Translations under genes and position numbers: made by a program
Shown: in pieces, positions 1,170-59,416 of the stretch
Layout: every line of letters starts with the position of its first letter
How positions within the stretch are numbered: the stretch's first letter is position 1
Virus record (IMG/VR): IMGVR_UViG_3300033752_000251
Strand: one strand, 5' to 3'
Source of the DNA: an uncultured virus (IMG/VR IMGVR_UViG_3300033752_000251)
Taxonomy: Duplodnaviria; Heunggongvirae; Uroviricota; Caudoviricetes
Length of the DNA: 64,000 nt
Notes under the pieces: generated by a model
Database searches by the model: none
Seen by the model: the letters and a program-made list of their open reading frames with translations, nothing else
What the model was told of the DNA's origin: nothing

Positions 1170-1230
1170 TTATTAGCTTACATTACAATAGATGATATGG
1201 GAAAACTGATGTTGGGAGGTCAAAGTTGGG

Positions 1231-2904
1231 ATGAGAGATTTCATAGCGAATTATGAAAACGAAAATGAAAAACGAATTAACTACGGTCTCATTACCCGCG
1301 AATACGATGAGGACCTCATTAAACTAATTGTAAACGCATGTAAATCATTGGAGGTCCTTGAATATATTAAATTTCTCGGTTATACATTCATTGAGGATGA
1401 GAAAGAGATTGATCTCAATGAATATATGACTACCCGTAAAAAATCCAGAAAGAAATCCGATACGCGCTACATGTACATGCAAGATAGCAGATACATGGAG
1501 CTTCGTCTCAAGTTCAAGCTGGAATGTAAGGGTGAGGAAGCGATCGTAACTAAGAAGCTTCTTATCCCAGTAGCTGACGAAAATGGCTACTATACAATCA
1601 AAGGTAAGAAATATCTTTTGCTCTATCAATTGGTAGATTCTTCTACCTATACAACTCGCCAGAATTTGACACTTAAATCTCTGGTTCCAGTAGTTCTTAA
1701 ACGTGTTAAAGGGGAGTTTGAGGATACCGACGGTAATTTTTATACTGCCCCCACATATTTGCTTATCTTTAGGAAAGAGATAGACCTTTTACTGATTTAT
1801 TTTGCGAAAATGGGTGTTACCAAAACCCTTAAATTCTTCAGCGTTGATAAAGTGGTTAGATTCGTTGAAGAAGAAGGGGATAAAGAGAATAACATCTATT
1901 TCAAGATAAAAAATAAACTATTTTTGGAAGTAAACCGTTATTTCTTTCTAAAGTATCAATATGTGCAATCAATAGTGTCCATGATTCTGCGATTTGTTAC
2001 AAATCGTTTGAATTATGAGGACCTTGATAATAGAAACTACTGGATTGAATGGATTGGAAGTATGCACGCTACCAATTCATATAACTACATGGAAAAAGGA
2101 TTAAATACACTGAAATTCATTGAGCGTATGCTTGATGAAACGACGAAAGATATTCTTAAGATCAACGATTCGAATAAAAAATCCATCTATTCCATCCTTC
2201 GCTGGATGGTCCAAAATTACAACGAACTTCGTAAAAAGGATAACATGGATTTGACAAATAAACGTTTGAGGTGCAATGAATATATTGTATCTCTGCTGAC
2301 AAAAGCTTTTAATGAAAGAATGAATCGGGTAATCGCTGCTGGTAGCAGAGTTACTCTGGATAAAGTAAAAGAAATCTTGAAGTTTTCCGGAAATATTTTG
2401 ATGGATCAACTCCATATATCCGGATTGCTTCGGTATGATGATCGCATTAATGATATGGACTTCTTTGCAAAACTTAGATTTACCTTGAAAGGTCCAAACT
2501 CTCTTGGTAATAAAAACGAAAACAATATTCCGATGAAATATAGAGGTATCCACCCATCATATTTGGGAAGATTGGATATCAACGTCTGTGGAACAAGCGA
2601 CCCAGGTTCATCTGGTATCATCACGCCTTTCTGTAAAACCGAAGGGTTGTATTTTGATGGAGCTCATGAACCTGAGGATGGTATTTTCGATTTCCAGAAA
2701 GAGATGTCTAAGAAACACAAAGAGCAGAACAAAGATATTCTTTACGTGGACCCGTTTGAGAAATGTGAAACGATTCAAGAACTCTTTGACCAAGAAAGAA
2801 ATTTAAGAGAAGTTGTCAGAATGTCGTCGATAAAGAGAACTGAGTATGACAATGGTTATCTCAGGGTCTGGATAAATATCAACGATAATGACGACGATCT
2901 ATAA
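1231..2904 (+). CDS. Multisubunit RNA polymerase beta subunit, N-terminal half (probably non-virion RNAP)
   Basis: IPVADENGYYTIKGKKYLLLYQL and RGIHPSYLGRLDINVCGTSDPG match RpoB motifs (IPLMTxxGTFIING..., RDVHPTHYGR); preceded by an early promoter. Confidence 0.88.
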   Translation: MRDFIANYENENEKRINYGLITREYDEDLIKLIVNACKSLEVLEYIKFLGYTFIEDEKEIDLNEYMTTRKKSRKKSDTRYMYMQDSRYMELRLKFKLECKGEEAIVTKKLLIPVADENGYYTIKGKKYLLLYQLVDSSTYTTRQNLTLKSLVPVVLKRVKGEFEDTDGNFYTAPTYLLIFRKEIDLLLIYFAKMGVTKTLKFFSVDKVVRFVEEEGDKENNIYFKIKNKLFLEVNRYFFLKYQYVQSIVSMILRFVTNRLNYEDLDNRNYWIEWIGSMHATNSYNYMEKGLNTLKFIERMLDETTKDILKINDSNKKSIYSILRWMVQNYNELRKKDNMDLTNKRLRCNEYIVSLLTKAFNERMNRVIAAGSRVTLDKVKEILKFSGNILMDQLHISGLLRYDDRINDMDFFAKLRFTLKGPNSLGNKNENNIPMKYRGIHPSYLGRLDINVCGTSDPGSSGIITPFCKTEGLYFDGAHEPEDGIFDFQKEMSKKHKEQNKDILYVDPFEKCETIQELFDQERNLREVVRMSSIKRTEYDNGYLRVWININDNDDDL

Positions 2905-5466: not shown

Positions 5467-5542
5467 GCCGTCTTAGCTCAATTGGTAGAGCGTCTGACTT
5501 GTAATCAGATGGTTGGGGGTTCAAGTCCCTCAGGCGGCACCA
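5467..5542 (+). tRNA. tRNA-Thr(UGU)
   Basis: GCCGTCT/AGGCGGC acceptor stem, anticodon loop ctTGTaa, GGTTCAAGTCC T arm, encoded CCA. Confidence 0.95.
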
Positions 5543-5553
5543 TATACCTATCT

Positions 5554-5630
5554 GGGCCCTTAGCTCAGTTGGTGAGAGCAGTCGGCTCATAACCGATCGG
5601 TCGCAGGTTCGAGTCCTGCAGGGCCCACCA
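5554..5630 (+). tRNA. tRNA with CAU anticodon, most likely tRNA-Ile2 (lysidine, reads AUA)
   Basis: GGGCCCT/AGGGCCC stem, ctCATaa loop, CCA; body closely resembles Bacillota tRNA-Ile2 rather than fMet. Confidence 0.88.
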
Positions 5631-5647
5631 ACTTAAATTTTAATCGC

Positions 5648-5733
5648 GCCGGGGTGGCGGAATTGGCAGACGCACGGGACTTAAAATCCCGCGACTTCGG
5701 GTCATGGGGGTTCGAGTCCCCTCCTCGGCACCA
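5648..5733 (+). tRNA. tRNA-Leu(UAA)
   Basis: GCCGGGG/CCTCGGC stem, ctTAAaa loop, long variable arm, CCA. Confidence 0.95.
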
Positions 5734-10862: not shown

Positions 10863-12719
10863 GTGATAAACTTGAAATTTATACCTCATAGAAATAAAGA
10901 AAATACGATGTTGTTAAATGTTATGTATCATAATAAAAAAGTTGGTGGGGATGCAGACTATCTTGATATTATCTATAAAGATCTTGATACGGGAGAAAAA
11001 TTTGTTGAAACAATTAGAGAGCCTGAAATTGAGATTTATTTTACAAAAGAAAAATATCGTAACTACGATTATAATAAATTATTTATTGAACTCGATCAGA
11101 CAGAGATGCATAGATGTAAATTTAACAATCTTCCCTTCTATATCGCCCAGCAAGCGGGTGACATGTTTAAAAAATTTATTGAAGATTGTAAAGCTACAGG
11201 TAATTGGGGTAAAATTCATGAAATTCATAAATACCCATATGTATTTGGTTCAGATTATGATATCGAAAACTGGGTGAGAATTCAATGGGTTTTACACAAC
11301 GACAATGATCGACCCAAATATATTACAAAGCAGTTTCTCGATATTGAGGTTGACAGCTATAAGTTTGATGGGTTTCCGAAAGAGGGAGAATGTCCCATTA
11401 ATGCAGCAACCATTGTAGATAAAGAGAGTAAATCAGTATTCACTTTTCTTTTAAGAAATCCTGAAAACCCATTAATTGCAGATTTTGAAGCAAGAGTGGA
11501 TGAGTTTATTAAAGAACTCCATGATGACTTTGATGATGTTTATGGAGTGCTGGATTACAATATTTACATGTATGATGATGAATGTGATCTCATAGTTGAT
11601 ATGTTTAAATTGATTAACACTCTTAAACGGGATTTTATGTTGATTTGGAACATGGGCTTCGATATTCCGTACATTATCGAACGCCTGAAGAAACTCGGAT
11701 TAGATCCCATAAGAGTTATGTGTCATAAAGATTTCAAAGTCAAATATCTTTTCTATAAGAAAGATTATAAAACTTTCTCCATTCCCAATAAGGGAGACTA
11801 TTTTAGAATTTCTTCATATACAACGTATCTCGACCAAATGATCAATTATGGCGGACTTAGAAAAGGTCAAGGAGAGATCAGATCCTTTTCTCTTAATGCA
11901 GTTGCAGAGAAAGAGATTGGTGATTCTAAGCTTGATTACAGCGAAGCTGCCAATATCAAAACATTAGCATGGGTTGATTATTGGCTTTTCGTTAAATATA
12001 ATATAAAAGACGTTCTTCTTCAAATGGGAATTGAGGATAAAACCGGAGATACTGATAATATTTATCAACGAGCATATGCAAATGCTACTGTATATCACAA
12101 AGTATTCAAACAGACGGTGTTCCTTAAGAATCGGGCCTATGTTGAGTTTTATAAACAGGGTCTGATTATTGGGAATAACATCAACGTTGATTACGGTGAG
12201 AGTACTAAGAACAAAAAAGCACAAGAATCGGATGAAGGCGATGACGATGAAAAATTCGATGGTGCATTAGTTGCAGACCCCATGCTTAATTCACATACTG
12301 GGGTTAAGATTTTTGGAAAAAGAAGCATGTTTATTTACGATAATGCTGTAGATATGGACTTCTCGTCCATGTATCCAAATATAATTATAACATTCAACGT
12401 TGCACCTAATACTATGATTGGAAAATTGATCATTGATAGTTCAATTGGGGAAGTTAGTCGTAAGATTCAAAATTCGGATAACAGTGACATTGATGACAAA
12501 GGTAAAGAGTTTGTAGACAATTATCTTATTGGAAACTATGGGCTCATGGGAACCAAATGGTTTGGTCTCCCTGGTATTCTTGAATTGGATAAGAAAGTTC
12601 GTGAACAGTTTGGAATCAAGAATAGAAAGAAATATAAAGTTCCTGAGTTGTATGGAAATACACATTTTATCGACAAATTAGTTATCGAAATTGGGGATGA
12701 TGGTAATGGACAACCTTAA
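10863..12719 (+). CDS. Split family-B DNA polymerase, N-terminal subunit (3'-5' exonuclease + motif A)
   Basis: ExoI LDIEV, ExoII WNMGFDIPYI, ExoIII YNIKDV, motif A DMDFSSMYP; lacks motifs B and C. Confidence 0.9.
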   Translation: MINLKFIPHRNKENTMLLNVMYHNKKVGGDADYLDIIYKDLDTGEKFVETIREPEIEIYFTKEKYRNYDYNKLFIELDQTEMHRCKFNNLPFYIAQQAGDMFKKFIEDCKATGNWGKIHEIHKYPYVFGSDYDIENWVRIQWVLHNDNDRPKYITKQFLDIEVDSYKFDGFPKEGECPINAATIVDKESKSVFTFLLRNPENPLIADFEARVDEFIKELHDDFDDVYGVLDYNIYMYDDECDLIVDMFKLINTLKRDFMLIWNMGFDIPYIIERLKKLGLDPIRVMCHKDFKVKYLFYKKDYKTFSIPNKGDYFRISSYTTYLDQMINYGGLRKGQGEIRSFSLNAVAEKEIGDSKLDYSEAANIKTLAWVDYWLFVKYNIKDVLLQMGIEDKTGDTDNIYQRAYANATVYHKVFKQTVFLKNRAYVEFYKQGLIIGNNINVDYGESTKNKKAQESDEGDDDEKFDGALVADPMLNSHTGVKIFGKRSMFIYDNAVDMDFSSMYPNIIITFNVAPNTMIGKLIIDSSIGEVSRKIQNSDNSDIDDKGKEFVDNYLIGNYGLMGTKWFGLPGILELDKKVREQFGIKNRKKYKVPELYGNTHFIDKLVIEIGDDGNGQP

Positions 12720-21694: not shown

Positions 21695-23758
21695 TTAGTT
21701 ATTCAATTCATCAAAAAGATCCATATCTATCATATCCTCATCATACGCATCTTGATCTTCTACGTAGTTTTTAGGTCTAAGCATTGCATCAATCATATTG
21801 GATTCTCTTCGTGCACGCATTATTTCCATTGCCATATCATTTTGATAATCTGCCAGTGTTTTTGATCCTACGTTCTTAAATGCCTCTTTTAAATCCTCAG
21901 GTAATTCCTCATATATATCTTCATAATCGAGACCTTTATTTCGTTCGTTTTCATCAGGAAGAGATCCTTTAGTGAATCCAAACCTGGAAAGATTATTGCC
22001 GTGATAATACACATAAAGGACCATCAAATATGACATTACGTTGTCATCATGGAATCCTTGCCCTGCAACAATTTTTCCACCTTTTGTAACAACAAGACTC
22101 AAGATATCGTCTATCAAGAATTGGCCAATGAGTTTGTCTTTTTTCTCTTTGACATGTACATAAAGAAGTTCGAACATTCTTTCGCGTGATTTAGGACCAG
22201 TCCAGACACCAAACATACGACGTTTGTTGGCTTCTTTCTTGAGGAATCCTTTATTGTCAAGACGGTCGACGACACTTTCTTCCATCGGGTCTTTTACATT
22301 TTCAAAGTAAATATTTCTAGCAATTTCAGTTTGACGCAAGAATTCAATAATAGCACTACCTTTGTTTCGTTCGATGATAACGATAGCCCTAGGAATATAT
22401 CTTCTGACTAACGTATAGATGAATTTTGTGAATTCAGCCTCACTGATGTATGGCGATTTAAATTCTGCTACGACTTTAAGAGTATAAGGGTCAACTATAG
22501 TCAGTGCTGAATTATCCCGCCTGTCACCATAACCACTTGCTACGTCAACACCAACCATATAAATTCTTTCTTTATCCAGCTCTTCATAAATATACAGAGG
22601 GAATAGTTTATTAATGAATATTTCATCTTTAATTATACCTTTCATATCAGGCAATGCATCGAGATCTTCAGGATCAAATGGCGAATCCTGAGAACCGCGC
22701 ATACGTTTCAGCAAAATTTCACGCTTTATCTTCTGTGGGTTATTGTTAAGAATACGACATTGTTCGTTAAACCATTCTTCACCTTCACCCAATTGGATGT
22801 AGCTGTATTCGATATAAACGATTTTATTCTCGGAACATTTTTCGATATATTCATTAATGTCATCCAAAGACCAGTCATAGAACTTTTCAGTCCATTTACA
22901 GGTCTTAGAGATGATCTCCATAGCGTCTTGACCTGGTTGAGTATCCAAGTCGCCAGGAGTAGATGTAAATATACGACAATATGCAGAGTTATTTCTTTTT
23001 GCATTCCGTGCCGCCGTGACAAATGCAGGACCGGCAGCCTCAATAATTGTCTTAATAAACGGAGTGAACTCAACTTCATCGTAATATTGGATGGGTTGCG
23101 TATTACCCCGACCAATACCATCCGCTGCTTGTATAGATGTGGCCGAGGGTTTGGTGACGATTCTATTCTTATTCGTGGGATTCATAAGAGACTTGACATT
23201 ATTACGTTCTTTAACTTCATCTCCATCTTCATCATATGCAATCTTCATTTGCATATAAGAAGGCAAGAGATCTCTTTGAGCTTTGAGACGTGCCAAGTTA
23301 TTGATAGCGTCCTCAGATCTCTTATTAATGAATGCAATTTCAGAGTTAGTTGTACCAAACAGAAATGCCCAGTCTATAATTGCTATGGCTGATTGTGTTT
23401 TACCTTTCTGACGAGGTATGACCACATAATGGTCTATACCAAGAAGGAAGCAGAATGTTTGTGCCAGATTGGCCCGGTGAAGTTGATAAGGTATGCCGTT
23501 ACCACCTTGGTCCGGAATTCTCACACATTCACGCAGGAAATACCAGGGGTTTACCATACATTCATTAATAATACGAACCATTTGGTCCTCTGTCAAATAG
23601 GGAGAGAACGGATCAACCCCTTGGAGTGTTTCATCATAGAGTCGAAGAAAAAACATATTATTTTTAATACCGAGTCTTTTTAAATCAACTGCAACCTGAA
23701 GGAACGATAGATTACGTGTTTTTATATCGTAAATAAAAGTTCTTTTCTTACCGGACAT
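21695..23758 (-). CDS. terL: Terminase large subunit
   Basis: Walker A PRQKGKT, Walker B YYDE, STP coupling motif, nuclease motifs GVDVASG, IIERN and HDDNVMS. Confidence 0.93.
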   Translation of the reverse strand: MSGKKRTFIYDIKTRNLSFLQVAVDLKRLGIKNNMFFLRLYDETLQGVDPFSPYLTEDQMVRIINECMVNPWYFLRECVRIPDQGGNGIPYQLHRANLAQTFCFLLGIDHYVVIPRQKGKTQSAIAIIDWAFLFGTTNSEIAFINKRSEDAINNLARLKAQRDLLPSYMQMKIAYDEDGDEVKERNNVKSLMNPTNKNRIVTKPSATSIQAADGIGRGNTQPIQYYDEVEFTPFIKTIIEAAGPAFVTAARNAKRNNSAYCRIFTSTPGDLDTQPGQDAMEIISKTCKWTEKFYDWSLDDINEYIEKCSENKIVYIEYSYIQLGEGEEWFNEQCRILNNNPQKIKREILLKRMRGSQDSPFDPEDLDALPDMKGIIKDEIFINKLFPLYIYEELDKERIYMVGVDVASGYGDRRDNSALTIVDPYTLKVVAEFKSPYISEAEFTKFIYTLVRRYIPRAIVIIERNKGSAIIEFLRQTEIARNIYFENVKDPMEESVVDRLDNKGFLKKEANKRRMFGVWTGPKSRERMFELLYVHVKEKKDKLIGQFLIDDILSLVVTKGGKIVAGQGFHDDNVMSYLMVLYVYYHGNNLSRFGFTKGSLPDENERNKGLDYEDIYEELPEDLKEAFKNVGSKTLADYQNDMAMEIMRARRESNMIDAMLRPKNYVEDQDAYDEDMIDMDLFDELNN

Positions 23759-32236: not shown

Positions 32237-32910
32237 GTATACACCACCCGCCCGGCGGCCGCTGTGAAGCTCGCGGAGGCGGTGCATCGAAACCTGATCC
32301 GCGCGACTGACCAGATCGCCGAGTTCGTGTACGTGGCGCCGGACGATCCGAAATACGCTGTACTGGCCGGTTTTGTCATGGCGTTCAGCGCGATGGGGCT
32401 TTGGAGTGGAACGAAAAACATCATCGGGAAGTGAACGGGAAGAAACCCCGCCTGGCCGTGTGGCTGGGCGGGGTTGTTTGACAGTGGTATAATTAATACT
32501 TTTTGCGTATAATAAAGTTCAGAAAAAGGAGGCATTTCGCATGTTCTCTAAAACCAAACAATTCATAGGGTTTGTGCACAAGAAAGTTATGGATGATATT
32601 GAGAAATTCGAAAAGTTTTCAAAAGAACAGGATGAACGTTTTGATTCTATAAAAAAGCAAATGGAAAATTGGGATAAGAACACTAAATTGATTCGAAGAA
32701 AATAGCAATCGCCGAATCGCTGACTGAGCACGTGCCGGCGCCGAAGTGGTTCGTGGATCAATTCGGCAGCGGCGATCTCGGCGGTCTGATCAGCGATCCG
32801 CACTTTAGCCTTGAGGGCTGGGCGCGCGCTGGCCTCATCGCGTCGACGGTTGCGAATGCGAACCGCGACCAAAAGCGGCGCCGTCGGCCCTACGAGCCGC
32901 AGGACTTTAT
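32237..32910. other. High-GC mosaic of short foreign phage gene fragments (amidase, unknown, holin + terminator, small gene, endolysin C-terminal domain, tail assembly protein T)
   Basis: Hand count: 80/120 GC at 32241-32360 and 127/190 GC at 32711-32900, against AT-rich flanks; + strand translations are recognisable pieces of unrelated proteins. Confidence 0.75.
32541..32705 (+). CDS. 54-aa small protein MFSKTKQFIGFVHKKVMDDIEKFEKFSKEQDERFDSIKKQMENWDKNTKLIRRK
   Basis: AAGGAGG RBS; upstream host-type extended -10 TGgTATAAT at 32485-32493; too short for the ORF track. Confidence 0.65.
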   Translation: MFSKTKQFIGFVHKKVMDDIEKFEKFSKEQDERFDSIKKQMENWDKNTKLIRRK

Positions 32911-32933
32911 ACCAAATAAGTATTTCCAAAAAT

Positions 32934-32949
32934 ATAATATATAATTTAT
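32934..32949 (-). promoter_or_regulatory. Early promoter facing the mosaic cassette
   Basis: Reverse complement ATAAATTATATATTAT is identical over 16 nt to the promoters at 1154-1169 and 50251-50266. Confidence 0.75.
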
Positions 32950-32972
32950 ATTCCAAAAATATACCTTTTTAA

Positions 32973-33042
32973 CAAAAAAAATTGCGGATGCACATTTGAG
33001 TGCATCCGCTTTGAGGGGGGTTGGGGATGGGTTGGGATAATT
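32973..33042 (-). ncRNA. Putative ~70-nt late C-rich small RNA
   Basis: Late promoter AACA-taaagg-TA at 33042-33053 (-), C-rich tract, gcggatgcac/gtgcatccgc hairpin plus U tract; no ORF. Confidence 0.6.
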
Positions 33043-33110
33043 ACCTTTATGTTTTTAATTTAATTATTTTTTAGTGAAAAAAAAAATAAAAGATAGAAAT
33101 AAAAAAAAGG

Positions 33111-33337
33111 TCATGAGACCTTTAATTTTCTTCTTTCCATTTCACAATATACCGCTTCCACCCAATCACCCATAGTAACACCGGGGAAATATACCGTATC
33201 ATACGGTTCATCCAAAGAATACAACTTTTCTTTTAAGCAGTATTTAATTGCTTCCCATATTTTGATAATTTCTCCGTCCGTGTAGTCCTGTCCTTTTCCA
33301 GTAATTCTTGTATAGTATTATAACCTTTGAAAGCCAT
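33111..33337 (-). pseudogene. Small gene interrupted by a 1-nt frame break
   Basis: AGGAGG RBS, MAFKGYNTIQELLEK then -1 frame GQDYTDGEIIKIWEAIKYCL...ERRKLKVS. Confidence 0.55.
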
Positions 33338-33468
33338 TTTTTAACCTCCTAATTTTTTTATTAATTATCTTCATTATTATGATATAATAAATAAAAAAAT
33401 AAAGGATACGGTAAAAATCCTATATCCTTATCATAAAATATTTTTTGTACTATCTCTTTACATTATTC

Positions 33469-34221
33469 TTACGAAAAGAATTCATATAATGAAACGGTAT
33501 TGGGCTCAACTATAGGCAATCTAAATTCATTTTCTGCTTCTCTTTCAGATAAAACCCTATTTGTCTTTCGACAATGAACATTTCTTGCATTGGAGAAATC
33601 GTCATCAGCGTTCCTCATCTTACTCCTACCAAAGGATGCCATAGAATATTTTTTCTTTTTCATATTTTCAACGATTTTCTCTGTCACATCTTTGGTAATG
33701 TTGTTTGCCAAGAAAACAGTGAGGGGTATCTCTACAGAATTTCCAGTTTTATTTTTGTTACGGTCGTTATACCAACACTCAACGACTTCACCCTTCAAAT
33801 GAAAGGTAACTGAATAGATATCGACATCTATTTGAGCATTTTCATTATTTTTCCCCCGATTGAATGAACCTTTATCATTAAGCACACTTTCTACAATCTT
33901 ATTGAATAGAGAGAAAAATGCTGGTTCGACTATATTCCCTCTCTTTTTCAGTAAATTTGGGAAGGCTTCCATAAAACCTTCAATGGTGCAATATTCTGCA
34001 AAAATTCGTTTATTCACAACTTTAAACACTTCTTCAAAATGTTCACATTCACGAATAGGACCATGTTCACCATCATCAGACAATTTGACGGCAACATAGC
34101 TGTTATTCGTCAATTTAATTACAACAAAAGCCTCGTCAACATATTCATCGTCTCTTTCACGAATTTGGCCGAAAAGAAGCTTCGGTTTTTTCATTTCGGT
34201 TGCCGATTGTTGTCCAGTCAT
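33469..34221 (-). CDS. Hypothetical early protein
   Basis: AAGGAGG RBS, early motif at 34259-34266. Confidence 0.8.
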   Translation of the reverse strand: MTGQQSATEMKKPKLLFGQIRERDDEYVDEAFVVIKLTNNSYVAVKLSDDGEHGPIRECEHFEEVFKVVNKRIFAEYCTIEGFMEAFPNLLKKRGNIVEPAFFSLFNKIVESVLNDKGSFNRGKNNENAQIDVDIYSVTFHLKGEVVECWYNDRNKNKTGNSVEIPLTVFLANNITKDVTEKIVENMKKKKYSMASFGRSKMRNADDDFSNARNVHCRKTNRVLSEREAENEFRLPIVEPNTVSLYEFFS

Positions 34222-36686: not shown

Positions 36687-38696
36687 TTAAATTTTTTCTT
36701 TGAAGAACGGATCGATGAACGAAGATCCACTCTTTCTGAATGTGATGGGCTTGATCAATTGTCTGCTCAGATCCTGGAACGACAGACTGATCAGAACAGA
36801 CGGATGGTTTTGAAGAGCAGAGTCTACTGTCAAGATCCTATATTCGTTACCTTCTACATATTTTCGATAATTCGGCGGTTGAAGTATATCTTTCGTACTC
36901 CTAATCAACGGTCTAATCAAAATCTCAGCGTGAACAGAGTCTACTGAGAATTTCGATTCGATAAGTAGATCAAGAAACTTTTGAACCATCTCGTCCACAG
37001 TAGTACATCCTTCATGATCACTTCTATTAAGAAGGTTCATGATGCTATATAGGGGCTTCGTAAGTTCATTATTTGCAATTTCCATGACAAACAATCTGTC
37101 GTCAAAAGACAGATTGCTTAATGGAATCTCGTAATAGTCTCTGGATGATCTGTTATTGTCCAGTAACCTTTTGAGATCTTCAGAGATATACATTTCTCCT
37201 CCGTTTTGCTCACGGATCTCGATGACCTCGCCGGTCTTACGGTTTTTCAATTCGAACAACAAGATGTATGAGTTGAACTCACTATCATCGAATTGATCAA
37301 TTGTCTGAACGTTATCCTTCATAATGATCATGCTATATTGGTTGATATCAACATCCTCATTCTCGGTGTTCAGATAAATTTCATTAACGTTTATCGAGAA
37401 GAATTTATAAAATTCTTCGTTGAATTTTATTTCTTCTGATTGTGTAGTTAGCAAGTGTTTTGCTGACAAAATATTTTGTGATAGTGGGTTTGTGACCTGA
37501 GTTCCTGCATAACCACCTACAGACTTGAGGTTTTTATTCGTGTAATACAGTTCCCCGTAACATTTCATACAGATTTTCTTTCCTGCACATCTTACAGGCG
37601 TACGGAGCAGGATGGTTTTGCCGATAAGATGTTCATCCTCGGCTTTAATCACTTTGTATTCCCTAGTGTGAGGGAAACGATAATAACGTCCAATAAGTTT
37701 CTTAAGATGCTCACGAGTTTTCACCTCTATCTTTACAGTATAGAGAGTTCCGCAGTCGAGAGCACCCTCACCCTTTTTCTTCAATTCAATGTCAGACGCA
37801 AGAAGCATAACCATTCTGGCAAAGTGTCCTGATTTGCCCATTACGTGCTTATTCATAATGGCAGCCTTACGACCGCCAAGGGAATCCAGATAATAATTGG
37901 TTACATTACCCAGTCCACCAACGATGAAGTTCGAGTTAATCGGAATAGGAATCGTGTTGTCATAGAGGTCCGGTTTCAACCCACCATTAATAGAGAACTC
38001 GGTAAGCTGCTTTGGCTTTATACCTGTCCCAGCCATCAGAATGGGTTTGAGGAAGTTATCTTCTGTTTTCAAAATTTCAATTTCTTCATTCATGAGTTGA
38101 TCAAGATAATCCTCAATTTCCTTCGGTTGCATACTTTCATCGATTTTGGTTCTGATTATTTCATTGAATCGTGGATTTCTTTCTGCAACTTGAATGAATG
38201 TCTCAACATTAATTGACAAACCAAGAATCATATTGAAATCTGTCGAAATCCTAGACAGATTATGAATCATGTCGTGAATAACTTTATTCAATTTTTTATT
38301 GTCGAATTGCTTCCTGAATGGAATTATAATCATATTGTCAATATATGACTTAATGAGATTTGCAGATATCTTTGAGCAGTCTACAATGTAATGAGGGTTG
38401 ATATGTGAGAACCGTTCCAATCTTACCAACGGTTCCCACATCATTATATTGGTCAAAAAATGTCTAAGTTGAAGTGTGTGAATATACTCGTTTTCTCGAT
38501 TGAAGAATTTAAAGTAAACTGGATGGGTTCGGAACTCTTTATGTTCAAAACCCTGTTTAACGAAATCATAGATCTTCTCAATGAACTCATTATATGACTT
38601 TTTATTCTTTGTGTGATTTTCAATAATCAAAATATTATTTGAAAGGAACTCCATTGTTTTCTTTGCTTCTTCTGTTAAACCAGGTTGCACTATCAT
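36687..38696 (-). CDS. RNA polymerase beta' subunit, C-terminal half (probably non-virion RNAP)
   Basis: Bridge helix GGRKAAIMNK...SGHFARMV, DCGT, RTPVRC...ICMKCYG zinc site, trigger loop PLSQNILSAKH, VHAEILIR; early motif at 38790 and late motif at 38728. Confidence 0.9.
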   Translation of the reverse strand: MIVQPGLTEEAKKTMEFLSNNILIIENHTKNKKSYNEFIEKIYDFVKQGFEHKEFRTHPVYFKFFNRENEYIHTLQLRHFLTNIMMWEPLVRLERFSHINPHYIVDCSKISANLIKSYIDNMIIIPFRKQFDNKKLNKVIHDMIHNLSRISTDFNMILGLSINVETFIQVAERNPRFNEIIRTKIDESMQPKEIEDYLDQLMNEEIEILKTEDNFLKPILMAGTGIKPKQLTEFSINGGLKPDLYDNTIPIPINSNFIVGGLGNVTNYYLDSLGGRKAAIMNKHVMGKSGHFARMVMLLASDIELKKKGEGALDCGTLYTVKIEVKTREHLKKLIGRYYRFPHTREYKVIKAEDEHLIGKTILLRTPVRCAGKKICMKCYGELYYTNKNLKSVGGYAGTQVTNPLSQNILSAKHLLTTQSEEIKFNEEFYKFFSINVNEIYLNTENEDVDINQYSMIIMKDNVQTIDQFDDSEFNSYILLFELKNRKTGEVIEIREQNGGEMYISEDLKRLLDNNRSSRDYYEIPLSNLSFDDRLFVMEIANNELTKPLYSIMNLLNRSDHEGCTTVDEMVQKFLDLLIESKFSVDSVHAEILIRPLIRSTKDILQPPNYRKYVEGNEYRILTVDSALQNHPSVLISLSFQDLSRQLIKPITFRKSGSSFIDPFFKEKI

Positions 38697-38920
38697 CCAA
38701 TCCCAACCTCCTATTTATTATATCTCTCACTAATTTGTTAACTGGATAGTATTTTTCTACTTATCCACCATCTCCTCTTTAACACCCTTATAATATATAA
38801 TTGAACAACGATAGATTAATCGGATCATAGAAATTGACATATTGGTTTACTAATTTCTTTTAAATACATATTATAAATACGGTAATAAATAAAAATCATG
38901 TATGGAGGTAGAGACTATCA

Positions 38921-40259: not shown

Positions 40260-40426
40260 TAGATTCATCCCTTTCCTCATTTTTTTACCTTAATGTTCGT
40301 ATGAGTTTTTTGAAGAACATGATTTTTAATGTTCTTTTTAACAGTTTACTAAGCAGGAATCTAAATATATATTATAGATCAGACACAATTGAGAAGAAAA
40401 AATAAACTTTAAAAAAATAAGGAAGG

Positions 40427-40795
40427 ATGAATTTATGTATTATCGCTTTGAAGTTAAAATATAAAAATAAAATGTATGGGTTATTTGTGGTAATCGATAA
40501 GTATCTTGAAAATGAATATAAAAAGAATAGTGTTAAAAAGGAGATATCAATTCTTGATGATTTATTACACTCATTAGACACCACATTACCTCTTCCTTTA
40601 AAAGATATTTTCAAAGAAGATACAAAGAGTTGGTTTACGCTATATGGCTACCAAAAGAACATGCAGCATATAGAGAGAATTATTAAATTTATAAATAACA
40701 ATATTCCTGAATTAAAAATAGTAGAAAAGCAAAGTAAGAAAGTTTCAGATATAAAATATAGAGACGCGTATCAAGTTATTTGTACTATAAGATAG
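40427..40795 (+). CDS. Hypothetical protein
   Basis: 122-aa ORF after the early motif at 40368. Confidence 0.65.
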   Translation: MNLCIIALKLKYKNKMYGLFVVIDKYLENEYKKNSVKKEISILDDLLHSLDTTLPLPLKDIFKEDTKSWFTLYGYQKNMQHIERIIKFINNNIPELKIVEKQSKKVSDIKYRDAYQVICTIR

Positions 40796-40806
40796 GAGGG
40801 CTGGTT

Positions 40807-42753
40807 ATGGGTAACAAACTCGTAGATAGGTACACTTTTCTTAAAGAATGGAGAAAACATCAAAGAAATATTTTGATGCAGATGTATCCCGACTTAGATA
40901 AAAAAGAATTGAATAAATTTCTCGACAGTATTATCGATGAAACTTTGGTTAACCCTAAAGTTGAAATCCATAATAACTACATCCACAAGTCGGTTAGTGA
41001 TGATTTGCTGAGTGTGGTCAATTGGATCGAGCGCACCAACCCCGTTATGGGTGGTTTTGGTGTGTTCTTTAAGGATCAAGGGCAAGCGTTGAATCCGGCG
41101 GCTGTGATGTTGGAGAAATTCATGGCTCTCCGGAAAGAGTATAAATCTCAATTGGCCAATCATAAAGAAGGTAGTTACGAATATCAAACTTTCGACAGAC
41201 TTCAAATGACAGAAAAAGTTAATTCGAATAGTTATTATGGTGCATCTGGTGCAGAGACATCAAACTTTTTCAATCTTTATACTGCAACCAGTGTAACCGC
41301 TGCGGGTCAATCTCTTATAAGTACTACACAACAAGCGTTTGAAGCATTCATGTCCAACAACACACCGTTTATCGATTTGGATGACTGTATGAATTTCTTG
41401 GAAAATATTCGGAAAGAAGATTATGAGCTGGATGCTTCTTTCCTACCCTTTATCTCAGTAGATAAAATTCTTAATCGACTGAGAGGAATGTTTTATGAAT
41501 ATAGAGAAGAATATGAACCTCTTCTCATTAACTATCTGAATAATCAATCCGACGAATATATCAAGCGAGCATATTTCAAAAACAATCTTTACGAGTTTTC
41601 TTATTTGCCGAAAATTCGTACTAAACTCGTTAAGATTGTAGAAAACGTTGAGGAATTCAAGAATCCGAATAAAATTCCCGAATCTATTAAGTTTAATCTT
41701 GAAGATCTCTGGGATTTCTATAAAGAGTTTGTATTCTACAATTATCCTTCTTTTGACAGAATTCAACGTTTGAAAAACGTTAGACGTAAGACTGTCATAA
41801 TTGTTGATACAGACTCGAACTTTTTGAATCTCAATCCTTGGGTCGAGTTCATGTTTAATTTCGTAATTAAACCTCACAATCATCTCGCGTCGAGAGATTA
41901 TCAACAACTTAGATTTATTGCTATCAACACGATGTGTTATATCTTGACAAATATGATTACCGAAGTTCTTGAGAAATATACGAAGACGGCAAATATTCCC
42001 AAAGAATATCGTCCTAAGATTAATATGAAAAACGAATATCTTCTTAGCCGGATTGTTTTGTCGACTAAGAAGAAAAGATATTTTGCAAGCGTCAGACTTC
42101 GTGAAGGTAAAGAAATATTCCCTGAGAAAACCGAGATCAAAGGTATGGACTTCATTAAGTCTACAACCAGGGAAGAAACCAAAGAATATTTCACTAAAAT
42201 TATTGAAGAAAGAATCTTGAAAGCCAATAAGATTAACGTTGGTGAAATTCTGAGAGATCTTGAGAAATTTGAAGAGATTATCATTAACTCTCTGAAAAAT
42301 GGCGAAAAAAGTTTCCTTATCCCGACATCGGTTAAGGAACTTGAATCATATGCCGATCCTTTGAGAATGCAAGGGGTCAGAGCTGTAATTGCTTGGAACT
42401 ATTTGTATCCGGTCAATATTATTGAATTACCTGAAAAACCTGACCTCATTAAAGTTAAACTTGCAACTCCGACAGAAATTGAAAAGGTTAAGGCCGTTAG
42501 TCCGGAACACTACGGGATCATCGTTGAGAAAATATTAAATAATAAAGAAAAGAAAATTGCAGAAAAAGGTGTGCAAGTGATTGCATTGCCTCGAAACGTT
42601 AAAAAGATTCCAGACTGGATTATTCCATTCATTGACTATCGGACAATTGTGACAGACAATCTCAAGAGATTCTATTCAGTATTGGAGTCTCTCGGTATTC
42701 AAACTATAAGAAGTAGCAAGAGAGAATATATCAGCAACATTCTGAAAGTTTAG
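40807..42753 (+). CDS. Split family-B DNA polymerase, C-terminal subunit
   Basis: Motif B KVNSNSYYG, motif C IVDTDS, KKKRY, IKGMD; lacks exonuclease and motif A. Confidence 0.9.
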   Translation: MGNKLVDRYTFLKEWRKHQRNILMQMYPDLDKKELNKFLDSIIDETLVNPKVEIHNNYIHKSVSDDLLSVVNWIERTNPVMGGFGVFFKDQGQALNPAAVMLEKFMALRKEYKSQLANHKEGSYEYQTFDRLQMTEKVNSNSYYGASGAETSNFFNLYTATSVTAAGQSLISTTQQAFEAFMSNNTPFIDLDDCMNFLENIRKEDYELDASFLPFISVDKILNRLRGMFYEYREEYEPLLINYLNNQSDEYIKRAYFKNNLYEFSYLPKIRTKLVKIVENVEEFKNPNKIPESIKFNLEDLWDFYKEFVFYNYPSFDRIQRLKNVRRKTVIIVDTDSNFLNLNPWVEFMFNFVIKPHNHLASRDYQQLRFIAINTMCYILTNMITEVLEKYTKTANIPKEYRPKINMKNEYLLSRIVLSTKKKRYFASVRLREGKEIFPEKTEIKGMDFIKSTTREETKEYFTKIIEERILKANKINVGEILRDLEKFEEIIINSLKNGEKSFLIPTSVKELESYADPLRMQGVRAVIAWNYLYPVNIIELPEKPDLIKVKLATPTEIEKVKAVSPEHYGIIVEKILNNKEKKIAEKGVQVIALPRNVKKIPDWIIPFIDYRTIVTDNLKRFYSVLESLGIQTIRSSKREYISNILKV

Positions 42754-50254: not shown

Positions 50255-50319
50255 ATTATATATTATAATGGTAGGATGTGGAGAAACAAATTTAAAATAG
50301 AGGGTGGCGGTTAGGGATA

Positions 50320-51837
50320 ATGAATAAGCAGGATTTTATAAGGGTTGATGAATGGGCTAAAGGAGCGAGTGAAAATGAGATCGTCTATAAGAATCCTAAA
50401 GACGAGATTGTTCGTTGTGACGGAAAGCTTCTGATTATTCCGTTTGATGAAATTTTCAAGAAGGGTAACAAAGGTTTTAACGTATTCGTAATCAAGAAAG
50501 ATTCGTATGTTAAACAGTTGCCCGAAATTGCTTTGTATATTAACTATTTCATCAAGTTTTACGATACGGATAATGAGCTGCTTATGGCTTACCTGATGCT
50601 CAAGCATCAAATCGACAACAAGAAAAAACGCATCAAAAGAAAAGTTTTCATCAAAATGCTTTACTCGGTATTGTTTACCGAATCGATGAAAGAGAAAATT
50701 AACCGTATGGTTGAGGATAATTATTATATCGACCTTAAGTCCAAAAACAACATCAAGTATGCGGAGACATTGGAATTCACCAATGAGCACGCAAAAATCA
50801 TGATGAAGATTTCAATGGGAATGAAACTCATGGTTCCGGTGTTGTTCCACTATATCAATAGGAATAACATCATCAAGGACAAAGAGACCCCATTGTTCAT
50901 CTTCTATGAACATCTGTTCTATATGTGGGACGACAAGGTTGATATCTATCTGAAACTTCGAATAACTGTAGAGTCGAAGATAAAACGGCACTATAGTAAT
51001 AACAGTGTCATATGGAATCAGCGGGAGATCATGGGTATGGACCCGCTTATCTATATGGACACATTGCTGAAAGAGAACATCATTTCCGAGACGATGGTGA
51101 AATATAGATTCCACAAAAACATCATCAGTTTCAACTCCGTTGTCTTGGATAAACAGCTTGGCTTCTTTTCAATAACACCATACAATTATACGATGAGAGA
51201 ATTGACCACAACGAAGGACTCAGAGGGTTTGAGCGGTATTGATAAGCTTGAAATGAACTCGGCCAAAATCGATGAGTCCTTGGTTATCTTGTCTTCTGTT
51301 AATATAAAGAAGACGATCAAAAAGATAAAAAAACGATTCGGTATCGATATCGACAAAGATGAGCTTAGATTCTACGAGCAACATCACAAGATCAACAAAT
51401 TTCAAGTTCAGCTCGTAGGTTACTTCTATGCGAAGTATTTCGGTGGGTATAGAGATATTAATCTCTTGACACGCTCTCAATATATCAAGCTCATGTTGAT
51501 ACTGAAAAAACGTCTCCAATATCAAGGATTCATCTATCTTCCTATGATCTTATCCGGAAACGTTGAAAAGCTTATCAAACGGACTATTCAGAATCAGAAG
51601 TTTCTGGAAAAGGTTCGTAACTCTCCGGTGTATCAATCTATTCTCCAAGAAAAATTCGGTATAGTAGTTGATGAGCTGAATAAAAACAACATTATCATAA
51701 ATCTACTCTCAATCCTTCTCAACTCTCATTTCACGATAGTGGATTATGATTATCCAGAAAAGCTTGGGAATAAGATTGAAATCAATACGCCGGATATCCT
51801 GTCTGATGAATTCTTGAACTTTTTAAATCAGATATAA
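50320..51837 (+). CDS. Putative non-virion RNAP promoter-specificity subunit (AR9 gp226/phiKZ gp68-like)
   Basis: ~500 aa, helical; early promoter identical to that of the beta subunit; two genes from the chaperonin as recalled for AR9 gp228/gp226; no diagnostic motif seen. Confidence 0.55.
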   Translation: MNKQDFIRVDEWAKGASENEIVYKNPKDEIVRCDGKLLIIPFDEIFKKGNKGFNVFVIKKDSYVKQLPEIALYINYFIKFYDTDNELLMAYLMLKHQIDNKKKRIKRKVFIKMLYSVLFTESMKEKINRMVEDNYYIDLKSKNNIKYAETLEFTNEHAKIMMKISMGMKLMVPVLFHYINRNNIIKDKETPLFIFYEHLFYMWDDKVDIYLKLRITVESKIKRHYSNNSVIWNQREIMGMDPLIYMDTLLKENIISETMVKYRFHKNIISFNSVVLDKQLGFFSITPYNYTMRELTTTKDSEGLSGIDKLEMNSAKIDESLVILSSVNIKKTIKKIKKRFGIDIDKDELRFYEQHHKINKFQVQLVGYFYAKYFGGYRDINLLTRSQYIKLMLILKKRLQYQGFIYLPMILSGNVEKLIKRTIQNQKFLEKVRNSPVYQSILQEKFGIVVDELNKNNIIINLLSILLNSHFTIVDYDYPEKLGNKIEINTPDILSDEFLNFLNQI

Positions 51838-56178: not shown

Positions 56179-56254
56179 TCAAACTAATTTATCTCGTATA
56201 TTAATTAAACAAATCCTTAATCTTTATGTCTACCTGAAAGGAGGTTGGGGTAAT

Positions 56255-56719
56255 TTGATTGAAGGATTGAAGAAAGCCTTGCGTTCTGAAGAGAATGAAA
56301 ATTTTCTCTTTGATGCTATTCTTGAAAATGCAAGCGAGGCTTCTGATGAAGTCCGTGATGCATTTCTCGATGATATTGACTATGTTGTAATCGGTGCTGA
56401 AAATGATCCTGAAATCAAAGCACTCGTAGAGACTATTCCCGAGTATAGTGGCTCTGAAGTCGAGGAAGCAGAGGTTGAGCAAGAGATTTCTACCCTTGTA
56501 GAAAATCTTGCTGCTACAGTAACGAAGCTCTCACCTCAACATATTGAAGAGCTGAAGCGGGAAATTAACAAACTCAAGGCAAAAAATGAACGTCTTCGTG
56601 GAGAATTAGAATTCTTCCGTAAACGTGGTAACACTATGCAGTCCATGCGTTGTCAGCGAGAGATTGAAGAAAACGAGCGACGGATCAATCGCATCGAAGA
56701 AGACATCCGTAATAACTAA
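56255..56719 (+). CDS. Late protein, paralog 2, with C-terminal coiled-coil extension
   Basis: Late promoter at 56208-56219; GGAGGT RBS, TTG start. Confidence 0.75.
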   Translation: MIEGLKKALRSEENENFLFDAILENASEASDEVRDAFLDDIDYVVIGAENDPEIKALVETIPEYSGSEVEEAEVEQEISTLVENLAATVTKLSPQHIEELKREINKLKAKNERLRGELEFFRKRGNTMQSMRCQREIEENERRINRIEEDIRNN

Positions 56720-57468: not shown

Positions 57469-59049
57469 TCATTTTTCAAATTTAGTAAGCATGTAAAGCG
57501 TCTGAATACCTTCGTTGGTCGTTTTACGCATATTCTGTCCGTAGATATTCAAGATGTGATGTTTCCCCATCATTATCTCTTCAGCCTCTCTATTAGCTTC
57601 CTGCGAATAAAGACCTTTTACTGTAACCTGGTCCCCATCGTAGTCCCCACCGAGACCATGAAGGAAAAGATTTGACATTGTTATGGTATCGACGAAATAT
57701 ACAGATACTTTATCTTTGGGCATTTTGATATCAACATTGGGATAATTTTTATAGAGTTTAGAACCAACATACATAGGCACCGTATCATGCGTGCTAAGTA
57801 CTGTAACTTTCGAAGGGAACATTCCGAAATAGTCGAGTACGGGATATCGTGTGATATATACCATTTTATTAGATGTAACATCAACTGCAGCTTGGAACAA
57901 TACGTCACACCATGTTGCGGGACGATCAACAAGAGGTGATTCTTCTTCAGGTACACCTTGTTTGAAGAAACGTCCTGCAAAACTCATATAGACGCCATCT
58001 TTGAACTCAGGATCATCTACAGGAAGCATGATGGGTTCGAATCTGTCCCCATAGCTGAAAATAAATTTGTCGATTTGTTTCTTTATATATTCTTCGTTGA
58101 AATAAAGCTCAGGATCTTTTAAATGCACATACTTGATTTCTCCGTTTTTCTTCATCACAGGGTATCTATTACCAAGTCTCTCAATCTCCCGCTGGAAGAA
58201 CCTTTTCACCCATGCCACAATAAATGGAGTGAACAAGGAACAACATTGGGCCAGAGGAATACCACAATGGTAGAAATCCACCATCATGTCCTCAGGTCTT
58301 TCTGCTTTAAATACAGGAGCAGAAATAACTGAGCGAGCACCGTAGTCAATTGATTTACCGAGAAGAGATTTCTTTATAAGACCATGCTTTTTCTCAATTC
58401 TAGATTTCAAGAGATCATAAATTTCTACTAAGGTCATTTGAATTTTTGCTCTTACACCATTAAGCTCAAATTCAAAACTGTTTCCGTTTTTGAGAATTGA
58501 TGCATTGCGAATCAGTTTCGAGTATTTGTCGTTGATCTCATGGTGGGAGATCTTACCCACCTGGGAAGACTGAAGATTAACATCCCGATAAAATGCGGGA
58601 ATAACGATACATGTGGTCGTAAAAATTGTGTCTTTCTTATATGCGTTCAAAACGTCGATACGCTCATTACGCATCATACTGTTATTTTTCTCAAAATTTA
58701 ATTCATCCCATACTTTATAGAGAAATTCTAAGCCAGTGTCTCCATTTTCTTCATCTACAACAAGATTACCCTTTTCGACTTTGAAGCGTTTCGTACCGTG
58801 AACAATATGCTCAAAGTTTCTATTCATTCTTCTGAGAAGTTTGTAGATGAAAGGTTGAAGGAAATGACCACCGAGGTCAATAAAACCCCAGTTTTCTTGT
58901 CTTTCTTTTACAGATACACCGAAAATTTCAGTAGACAACAAACCCTTTGCTGTTGGAATATTACCCTTCTCAAAGAGAATGGGATCAGATACTTCTTTTA
59001 AGCGGTTTATAACTATAAATTCTTTAGTTGGAATTAAATCTATCTTCAT
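57469..59049 (-). CDS. RNA polymerase beta' subunit, N-terminal half with catalytic loop (probably virion RNAP)
   Basis: GLLSTEIFG, VIPAFYRD, LLGKSIDYGARSVIS, ITRYP, GGDYDGD (NADFDGD equivalent); lies in the structural operon. Confidence 0.9.
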   Translation of the reverse strand: MKIDLIPTKEFIVINRLKEVSDPILFEKGNIPTAKGLLSTEIFGVSVKERQENWGFIDLGGHFLQPFIYKLLRRMNRNFEHIVHGTKRFKVEKGNLVVDEENGDTGLEFLYKVWDELNFEKNNSMMRNERIDVLNAYKKDTIFTTTCIVIPAFYRDVNLQSSQVGKISHHEINDKYSKLIRNASILKNGNSFEFELNGVRAKIQMTLVEIYDLLKSRIEKKHGLIKKSLLGKSIDYGARSVISAPVFKAERPEDMMVDFYHCGIPLAQCCSLFTPFIVAWVKRFFQREIERLGNRYPVMKKNGEIKYVHLKDPELYFNEEYIKKQIDKFIFSYGDRFEPIMLPVDDPEFKDGVYMSFAGRFFKQGVPEEESPLVDRPATWCDVLFQAAVDVTSNKMVYITRYPVLDYFGMFPSKVTVLSTHDTVPMYVGSKLYKNYPNVDIKMPKDKVSVYFVDTITMSNLFLHGLGGDYDGDQVTVKGLYSQEANREAEEIMMGKHHILNIYGQNMRKTTNEGIQTLYMLTKFEK

Positions 59050-59416
59050 AAATATCCTCCTCACTACAGATGTTTTTGTTCTCTATAGTGATGTAGAGGG
59101 ATTTTTTATCGACTTTAATATCGACTGAAAAATACTTTGCAGGATAACCTTTAAAGGTTTTTGCAATATTAGAAAATTCCTTATTAAATTCTCTGAGATT
59201 TTTATTACTTTCGAAGTCGATTCTAAATTCAATTGCTCCCGGACTGTCAGAATTAGAACAGCGTATCTTATTAACTCCTTCAAGGGAAATATTTTCCATC
59301 AAACGATAGAAATATTTAAATTTTTCGTAGTGCGAATCCAAAACTTTTTCGAATAGTGAATAATCAGCTAACTCATCGTGAGTTAGCTGATTGAAAAGTG
59401 TAATTACATCAAGCAT
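59024..59416 (-). CDS. Hypothetical protein
   Basis: GGAGGGAGG RBS before ATG 59416. Confidence 0.7.
   Translation of the reverse strand: MLDVITLFNQLTHDELADYSLFEKVLDSHYEKFKYFYRLMENISLEGVNKIRCSNSDSPGAIEFRIDFESNKNLREFNKEFSNIAKTFKGYPAKYFSVDIKVDKKSLYITIENKNICSEEDIYEDRFNSN

Follow-up and report, generated by a model that had tools for sequence, protein, structure and literature searches.

A Candidate C-Rich Late Small RNA of an Uncultured Jumbo Phage and Its Possible Pairing with Initiation Regions of Five RNA Polymerase Genes

We report on a short intergenic element in a 64,000-nucleotide (nt) stretch of DNA from an uncultured virus (IMG/VR record IMGVR_UViG_3300033752_000251), here called the window, which corresponds, in reverse complement, to a portion of a 212,288-bp viral contig. 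The phage has a GC content of 35%, its major capsid protein shares 27% identity with its counterpart in Bacillus phage AR9, and the window encodes a split DNA polymerase, a terminase, a sheath and further jumbo-phage genes. The element (positions 32973 to 33053, minus strand) is, judged by its sequence features, probably a late small RNA (sRNA) gene. Read on the minus strand, it consists of a promoter match, a C-rich leader, a hairpin, AA and T8, ending at 32974. Its parts, and a motif on the opposite strand, are as follows.

33053-33042, minus strand: AR9-type late promoter match AACATAAAGGTA, of the type used by the non-virion RNA polymerase (nvRNAP); predicted start A33042, from the sequence and the AR9 consensus
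33041-33010, minus strand: G-free C-rich leader ATTATCCCAACCCATCCCCAACCCCCCTCAAA, with two CCCAACC-type repeats and CCCCCCUCA; proposed seed
33009-32984, minus strand: terminator hairpin GCGGATGCAC-TCAAAT-GTGCATCCGC, with 10 bp, a 6-nt loop and 7 G-C pairs
32974-32981, minus strand: U8 tract completing the intrinsic terminator; U7 in strain variants L113 and L118
33015-33036, plus strand: canonical G-quadruplex motif GGGGGGTTGGGGATGGGTTGGG on the leader's opposite strand; the only one in the window

A reading made earlier from the letters alone (the sequence-only reading) had described a late promoter at 33042-33053 followed by a C-rich stretch, a 10-bp hairpin and a U tract with no open reading frame (ORF), and the sequence, ORF and terminator scans agree with it. 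No ORF of at least 20 amino acids (aa) overlaps 32973-33053, and a consensus terminator scan of the element made its call, a GC-rich stem-loop with a U run, on the minus strand only. The 70-nt RNA predicted from A33042 folds with −20.6 kcal/mol (z = −7.4; equalled by 0 of 200 shuffles). In both the minimum-free-energy and the centroid structure nt 1 to 33 are unpaired and the 10-bp hairpin follows, the former structure accounting for 0.91 of the ensemble; the leader is thus predicted to be single-stranded, as an accessible seed would be. The leader tract is the most C-rich in the window (17 of 25 bases), where just two 25-nt windows hold at least 14 of one base, and the phage has exactly one extremely C-rich RNA-like unit. 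The predicted G-quadruplex motif at 33015-33036 on the plus strand has four tracts of three or more Gs with 2-nt loops (1 to 7 nt being allowed); 1.39 Mb of relatives' loci held one distinct canonical motif. Other identities tried for the site were dropped: a CRISPR-like array (repeat-spacer structure absent), a telomere-like repeat (the site lies mid-contig) and a replication origin (GC skew without a distinct turning point here).

In the main text of the AR9 transcription study, the late consensus is AACA-(6N)-TA/G, transcription starting at its last base, and 94 late starts carry it (PMC5312081). Across the window AACA-N6-TA shows no overall enrichment (53 matches; 52.6 ± 7.3 expected). In sense orientation, within 120 nt upstream, it precedes 17 of 66 genes, compared with 6.2 ± 2.5 in 500 shuffles (maximum, 15); the antisense count in the same upstream regions is 9. 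These 17 genes include those for the major capsid protein, the tail sheath and several virion proteins, and this non-random placement makes the late word meaningful as a promoter in this phage. The copy at 33053-33042 has the full consensus plus the following A, is close to AACATTAAGGTAA at 40297 before a virion gene, and is the sole intergenic copy with no gene behind it. The late-promoter type assigned by the sequence-only reading is accordingly borne out by the AR9 consensus, a gp226 homologue (below) and the 17-of-66 placement. By sequence, the element matches the definition of an AR9 late unit on every feature examined.

The element is also the only late-promoter unit within a run of early-promoter units on the minus strand. 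The AR9 early consensus is given as AAATATATATTAT-(6N)-G in the main text of the same study (PMC5312081). Its core, ATATATTAT, occurs as 12 exact copies in the window, nearly all just 5′ of replication or transcription genes; positions include 1161, 4418, 8783, 10783, 34259 (minus), 36612 (minus), 38790 (minus), 40367, 50258, 52975 and 32934 (minus). With at most one mismatch there are 91 matches (61 ± 7 expected).

Five nvRNAP genes were located, three in the window and two elsewhere in the same contig. Subunit names follow the text of PMC9209446.

1231-2904, plus strand: nvRNAP beta-N gene (PDB 7S00_c, E 3.1e-70)
36687-38696, minus strand: nvRNAP beta′-C gene (PDB 7S00_D, E 1.5e-59)
50320-51837, plus strand: gp226-like promoter-specificity subunit gene (PDB 7S01_A, E 1.4e-19)
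L127:1468-3732, outside the window: nvRNAP beta-C gene (PDB 7S00_C, E 1.6e-121)
L229:1501-2739, outside the window: nvRNAP beta′-N gene (PDB 7S00_d, E 8.9e-42)

The matches to PDB 7S00 and 7S01 confirm the identity of the three in-window genes, which had been put forward as putative nvRNAP genes. The beta-C and beta′-N genes were located via AR9 gp089, an ORF beside beta-C in a distant relative, profile searches (that for beta′-N built on a 15-sequence alignment) and two viral-contig scans. The exact early word precedes beta-N (1161), beta′-C (38798-38790) and the gp226-like gene (50258). Early words before these three nvRNAP genes and a late word at the element suggest that the proposed targets are probably early and the element late. 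A further polymerase-like ORF (57469-59064) matches cellular beta′ chains only and, from that similarity, is probably a virion-polymerase subunit.

The beta′-N gene shows a recurrent irregularity. In a distant relative its ORF (L145:3869-5197) stops at the catalytic motif, directly behind GLNAD; AR9 g270 (L202:3344-5521) is annotated as joined around an HNH endonuclease gene; and in the window phage the match stops at query residue 411. Introns at the beta′-N GLNAD site may be common in this group.

The translation initiation regions of all five nvRNAP genes are rich in G and complementary to the leader.

1210-1235, plus strand: beta-N initiation region, with GTTGGGA at 1211-1217 and GTTGGGAT at 1225-1232; predicted pairing site
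38689-38726, minus strand: beta′-C initiation region AGGAGGTTGGGATTGGATG, with GGTTGGGAT at 38700-38708; predicted pairing site
50299-50322, plus strand: gp226-like initiation region AGAGGGTGGCGGTTAGGGATAATG, with GGTTAGGGATAAT at 50309-50321; predicted pairing site
Outside the window: beta-C initiation region GAAGGGATGGTTGGAATG and beta′-N initiation region GGGAGGAATGGTTAGATG

Other complementary words are TTGGGGATG at 12691-12699 and GGTTGGGG before 56255. All of the G-rich words that the sequence-only reading had listed lie where it placed them; at 12691 the word stands, but the start that it would serve is an uncertain TTG overlapping the end of another ORF. Counted with at most one mismatch, GGTTGGGAT occurs 9 times (10.7 ± 3.0 expected), and 3 of the 8 sites outside the element lie just 5′ of start codons. 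The word GGTTRG is found within −16 to +1 of four of the five nvRNAP genes and 1 of 63 others (Fisher 3.0e-5), and GTTRG within 16 nt of the start in 5/5 and 2/63, respectively (Fisher 2.0e-6). Since the motif was taken from the in-window genes, the two outside the window are its fair test. The suggestion had been made to look for such a word at the nvRNAP genes outside the window, and a GGTTRG-type word stands at the start of both, against a base rate of 1/63.

The sole non-polymerase gene with GGTTRG at its start is ORF 56255-56719 (154 aa, coiled-coil-like, no family; AGGAGGTTGGGGTAATTTG, 56235-56257, plus strand), which has a late-promoter word 36 nt upstream. In L090, a 99% strain whose contig ends before the element, a one-base deletion changes the predicted pairing site of the gp226-like gene from GGCGGTTAGGG to GGCGTTAGGG.

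In relatives, the orthologous initiation regions are canonical (AGGAGG, A/T-rich spacer, ATG), the gp226-like gene excepted. Among the readable regions GGTTRG was found in 0 of 36 distinct beta′-C, 0 of 9 beta-C, 0 of 8 beta′-N and 0 of 1 beta-N sequences; the beta′-C region of relative L053 has AGTTGGG. On these sequence comparisons, a G-rich initiation region that is common to the five nvRNAP genes, derived and without counterpart in relatives appears to be a solid and new result, and one that is independent of the RNA.

Pairing was predicted in two ways. Plain duplex energy was computed for the 34-nt leader against −30 to +12 of 66 genes in the window; net energy was the cofold energy minus the two self-folds, i.e., with the opening cost of both partners charged. 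By plain duplex energy beta-N (−24.9 kcal/mol, −21 to +4), the gp226-like gene (−24.4 kcal/mol, −21 to +2) and beta′-C (−23.3 kcal/mol) ranked 2, 3 and 4 of 66, beta′-N (−27.5 kcal/mol) ranked 2 of 67 and beta-C (−18.8 kcal/mol) 7 of 67. By net energy the nvRNAP genes ranked 1, 2, 3, 5 and 6 of 67 (one window gene omitted) when the full RNA was set against −50 to +25, and 1 to 5 of 68, which is the minimum rank sum of 15, when the leader was set against −35 to +15. For each of the five, the Shine-Dalgarno sequence, the AUG or both lie within the predicted duplex.

The sequence-only reading had expected the nvRNAP initiation regions to head such a ranking; they do, at 1 to 5 of 68, but the result is largely one of composition. 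The three in-window regions are the second to third richest in G, and shuffled leaders also rank nvRNAP regions high because those regions are G-rich. Energies and the complete rank sum set the real leader further apart. The three-gene summed duplex energy was reached by 0.25% of mononucleotide and 1.25% of dinucleotide shuffles, and the five-gene duplex energy sum of the real leader beat 99.75% of 2,000 shuffles. With cofolding, 384 dinucleotide shuffles gave a rank sum of ≤15 in 1.3% and reached the five-gene energy sum in 0.3%. As we read these figures, the nvRNAP initiation regions are the class most receptive to any C-rich RNA in the sampled genome, and the real leader seems to pair with them slightly better than its composition would lead one to expect.

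Taken together, these features point to a possible negative feedback, which we prefer to the other readings, tentatively and at rather less than even confidence: a late sRNA would pair with five early nvRNAP initiation regions and block initiation. The element would be a self-contained late unit of an AR9-like jumbo phage: the phage nvRNAP would start at A33042 from AACATAAAGGTA and make a product of about 65 to 70 nt, with a 33-nt G-free, C-rich, single-stranded 5′ part followed by the terminating hairpin and U tract. The C-rich part would pair with G-rich translation initiation regions, its best partners being the beta-N, beta-C, beta′-N, beta′-C and gp226-like mRNAs, which bear the lineage-only G-rich word between the Shine-Dalgarno sequence and the AUG. 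With the Shine-Dalgarno sequence, the AUG or both buried in the predicted duplexes, the 30S subunit would be kept from binding the nvRNAP mRNAs, and the polymerase would make, late, an RNA shutting off the synthesis of its own subunits. The RNA as a discrete species, its pairing in vivo and the translational repression are all three what we infer here. In a more general form, of which we are more doubtful, GGTTRG would be a lineage-specific "address" on five nvRNAP mRNAs, read by a C-rich RNA of the same polymerase, in an autogenous loop governing a dispersed five-gene regulon.

On the minus strand the order of units is a helicase gene, a 250-aa ORFan with an early word, a small-ORF cassette, the element, an early word and a 659-nt island. 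Three features adjoin the element.

33106-33123, minus strand: terminator of the upstream small-ORF cassette (terminator scan)
32934-32942, minus strand: early-promoter-like word ATATATTAT between direct repeats TATATTTTTGGAA, just past the element's terminator and pointing into the cargo site; absent in L113
32247-32905, no strand assigned: variable cargo cassette, with two foreign gene fragments of 60 to 69% GC around an AT-rich 54-aa ORF

With terminators on both sides, the element would be insulated from neighbouring transcription. The upstream cassette (33077-33392; small ORF 33111-33337, minus strand) is moron-like, having an early-promoter-like word, a ribosome-binding site (RBS), a small ORF and a terminator. 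It is absent in L113 and in the contigs of RNA libraries X8 and X14, which join 33076 to 33393. Compared with X8, X9 and L118, the window's copy of the small ORF has a shifted reading frame (5-nt indel at 33285 and other differences); when intact, it would encode about 72 aa.

On the other side, the site directly behind the element appears, from the variants compared, to be a cargo hotspot. The window's cargo has coding-like fragments on the plus strand, and its 54-aa ORF (32541-32705) is equipped with an extended −10 and an RBS of its own. Of the two fragments, the right one is similar to lambda minor tail protein T (PF06223), with an E of 4.5e-5 that lies just under the cut-off, and at the end of the left one stand a stop codon and a GC-rich hairpin. 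Two RNA-library runs have contigs in which the island is joined without a break to its phage flanks. A GC-rich hairpin at 32443-32473 (AAACCCCGCCTGGCC...GGCTGGGCGGGGTT) has loose ends on both sides in several X17 and X9 contigs and raised depth in X9, which suggests that it occurs in several sequence contexts in those samples.

Variant L118 has an identical leader, U7 and a different cargo of 939 nt (about 50 to 60% GC). Variant L113, a metagenome contig, has one C-to-A change in the leader, U7 and no small-ORF cassette; about 60 nt past its terminator, the place of the island is taken by a same-strand ORF of 44 aa that has a strong RBS. Pfam and PHROGs searches with the L118 and L113 cargo ORFs gave nothing above noise. 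The element is thus kept in three strain variants whose cassettes differ on either side of it; the variants are so few that such conservation speaks only weakly for selection.

Homologues were sought more widely. Exact patterns for the C-rich 25-mer and for the hairpin found, among viral contigs, the window's own contig alone. A C-rich-tract scan of 83 loci, including three copies of the window's own contig and one 99 to 100% strain variant contig ending before the element, gave no homologue; a looser scan gave L008 and L006 as positional analogues, their homology unproven. At the same helicase/structural-gene junction, L008:10208-10312 and L006:9463-9556 have a late word, a C-run leader of about 35 to 60 nt, a 10- to 14-bp hairpin, U7 and no ORF. 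Their leaders do not align confidently with that of the element, and their nvRNAP initiation regions are canonical. By their sequences, these analogues give a hint that a small late unit recurs, but none of a conserved regulon. A scan of 32400-33500 against Rfam at E ≤ 10 gave nine weak matches, none of them near the gathering score of its family and none covering, on the element's own strand, anything beyond its edge. The adjoining 250-aa protein falls into a single 90% cluster among 5.8 billion proteins and is hence useless as an anchor.

A number of results weigh against the proposed repression of nvRNAP mRNAs. The element matches none of 4,227 families of Rfam 15 at the gathering score, RsaE/RoxS included, and when it was compared by blastn and tblastn with 50,697 phage records, together with its flanks and the adjoining 250-aa protein, nothing beyond chance matches came up. 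Conservation, which the sequence-only reading had proposed as a check, holds among the strain variants, but beside the helicase gene a homologous RNA was found in 0 of 80 related loci. In relatives L094-L097 the gp226-like gene has GGGGGTGGGATATTAATAATG, which is G-rich without GTT, and the helicase-side junction shows a terminator alone, with no such RNA found there. GGTTRG was defined after viewing the in-window genes, and one and the same sequence gave rise to the hypothesis and supplied three of its five data points. The rankings cover the 66 window genes, an ORF-based list edited by hand with some uncertain starts, and two outside genes; the whole 212-kb genome may have about 250. The terminase large subunit gene (21695-23758, minus strand) tops the plain duplex ranking at −28.0 kcal/mol; it falls to rank 7 to 11 with target self-structure charged. 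By plain duplex energy a three-gene rank sum of ≤9 was reached by 7.5% of 400 mononucleotide and 21.5% of 400 dinucleotide shuffles, and with cofolding the shuffled leaders had a mean nvRNAP rank sum of 26.7 ± 7.3, so that the ranking is mostly compositional. The two out-of-window genes alone were ranked equally well by 30.7% of shuffles (cofold), and their duplex energy sum was reached by 2.5% of 2,000 shuffles, a marginal gain.

The locus is partly present in 20 listed runs, six of which are RNA libraries, and was compared as assembled contigs (X8, X14 and X17). The X8 and X14 contigs cover the locus from the 250-aa gene onwards, pass the promoter word, enter the tract and break off at 33003 and 33019. 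Contig depth at the element is 10.7 (X8) and 5.2 (X14), compared with 182.8 in an X8 neighbour ending at 32915. The tract is present in RNA libraries; such contigs carry no strand, ends or abundance, DNA carry-over is possible, and stretches that they leave uncovered do not count as evidence. Standard RNA libraries lose 70-nt RNAs. In DNA run X9 there is no contig over 32988-33061.

Three other explanations compete with the nvRNAP feedback loop. The small late RNA may be real while the nvRNAP mRNAs are not meaningful targets, a reading that we consider somewhat unlikely. It might then act on host mRNAs (as a general anti-Shine-Dalgarno or RsaE-like mimic), titrate a factor that binds C, Rho for instance, or in certain strains be the terminator-bearing leader of the downstream cargo gene, and the nvRNAP GGTTRG would serve otherwise, e.g., as a protein operator for autogenous control. 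That any C-rich leader ranks the nvRNAP regions high suits this reading, as does L113, where the unit, about 60 nt without the early word, a strong RBS and the 44-aa ORF form a leader-attenuator-like layout; L008 and L006, too, share the element's layout and yet have canonical nvRNAP initiation regions. An attenuator sits less well with a hairpin predicted in 91% of the ensemble and no evident antiterminator. This reading would also leave as coincidence the lineage-specific joint occurrence of the C-rich RNA and a complementary word in 5/5 nvRNAP genes; the real leader, moreover, outpairs about 99% of shuffles.

It is unlikely, in our view, that there is no functional sRNA at all, with the terminator closing helicase-side units, the promoter word arising by chance and any importance of the tract lying in its DNA, as a place apt to form a G-quadruplex or i-motif at a junction where recombination adds and removes cassettes. 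AACA-N6-TA does occur at chance frequency window-wide, the RNA-library contigs span the promoter from upstream, and the perfect four-tract G-quadruplex motif with its 2-nt loops is unique in the window. The element also lies between two strain-variable cassette sites (33077-33392, present or absent; 32247-32905, replaced in L118 and L113), and assemblies break here, as in X9. Against this, the upstream cassette is already closed by a terminator 50 nt ahead of the promoter word, which leaves a second one without purpose; the promoter match is to the full consensus including the following A and resembles that of a virion gene; the C-containing leaders of L008 and L006 would form no opposite-strand G-quadruplex; and the nvRNAP motif is left unexplained. 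Finally, the RNA might activate, opening or stabilising the nvRNAP mRNAs in a positive feedback. The beta′-N target does have appreciable self-structure (−14.4 kcal/mol over −50 to +25) that an RNA could open, but the other four are weakly structured (−3.7 to −8.1 kcal/mol), and with predicted duplexes over the Shine-Dalgarno sequence and/or the AUG in 5/5 we hold activation to be very improbable.

Elsewhere in the window, the split DNA polymerase is suggested by two ORFs 28 kb apart (10863-12719 and 40780-42753, plus strand) that match DNA polymerase families (PHROGs 3011/262 and 2927/262), and a tRNA cluster lies at 5467-5733 (plus strand; Thr-TGT, Met-CAT and Leu-TAA).

Among known systems, the nearest are C-rich sRNAs of Gram-positive bacteria, namely RsaA-K, with a UCCC motif, and RsaE/RoxS (PMC2790875; PMC3961350). 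Like them, as far as their description there goes, the element would give a short RNA whose C-rich motifs are unpaired and which ends in a terminator hairpin, and the proposed pairing with G-rich Shine-Dalgarno regions would block initiation. It differs from these sRNAs in being encoded by a virulent-type jumbo phage under a phage-polymerase promoter, in that a longer, uninterrupted C-rich 5′ end takes the place of loops, and in that its proposed targets are the phage's own genes. With AR9 late units it has the promoter consensus in common, and the phage has a homologous enzyme of five subunits, one of them gp226-like; intrinsic terminators also close AR9 operons, according to the main text of PMC5312081. 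In that text AR9 late promoters drive protein genes and internal and antisense transcripts, and "small RNA" and "noncoding" occur 0 times, supplementary tables of transcription start sites aside. Phage-encoded sRNAs and antisense RNAs resemble the element as phage-made regulatory RNAs that act by pairing, and differ from it in that most of those described come from temperate phages or prophages. By term counts, a 2025 review of phage sRNAs mentions "jumbo" and "RNA polymerase" 0 times (PMC12197685), and in phiKZ, as reported in the text of PMC8244752, differential RNA sequencing gave one predicted 75-nt sRNA, for which a northern blot brought no confirmation. A partial survey of the literature, supplements excluded, found no jumbo-phage sRNA acting on phage polymerase genes. 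As far as that survey reaches, regulatory sRNAs of virulent phages are almost unknown and none is tied to a phage's own transcription machinery.

If true, the nvRNAP feedback loop would show by what means a jumbo phage that does without the host polymerase keeps its late polymerase in check, through a five-gene regulon defined by a short initiation-region word. The RNA/target pair would be compact (about 70 nt and five short leaders) and could be assayed with reporters though the phage is uncultured. T4 RegA is a protein that shuts off translation of early phage mRNAs, and rpoBC is under autogenous translational control. The element would share with both a late or autogenous repression at the initiation regions of early or polymerase mRNAs; in those systems the effector is a protein, whereas here it is proposed to be an RNA made by the very enzyme that is regulated.

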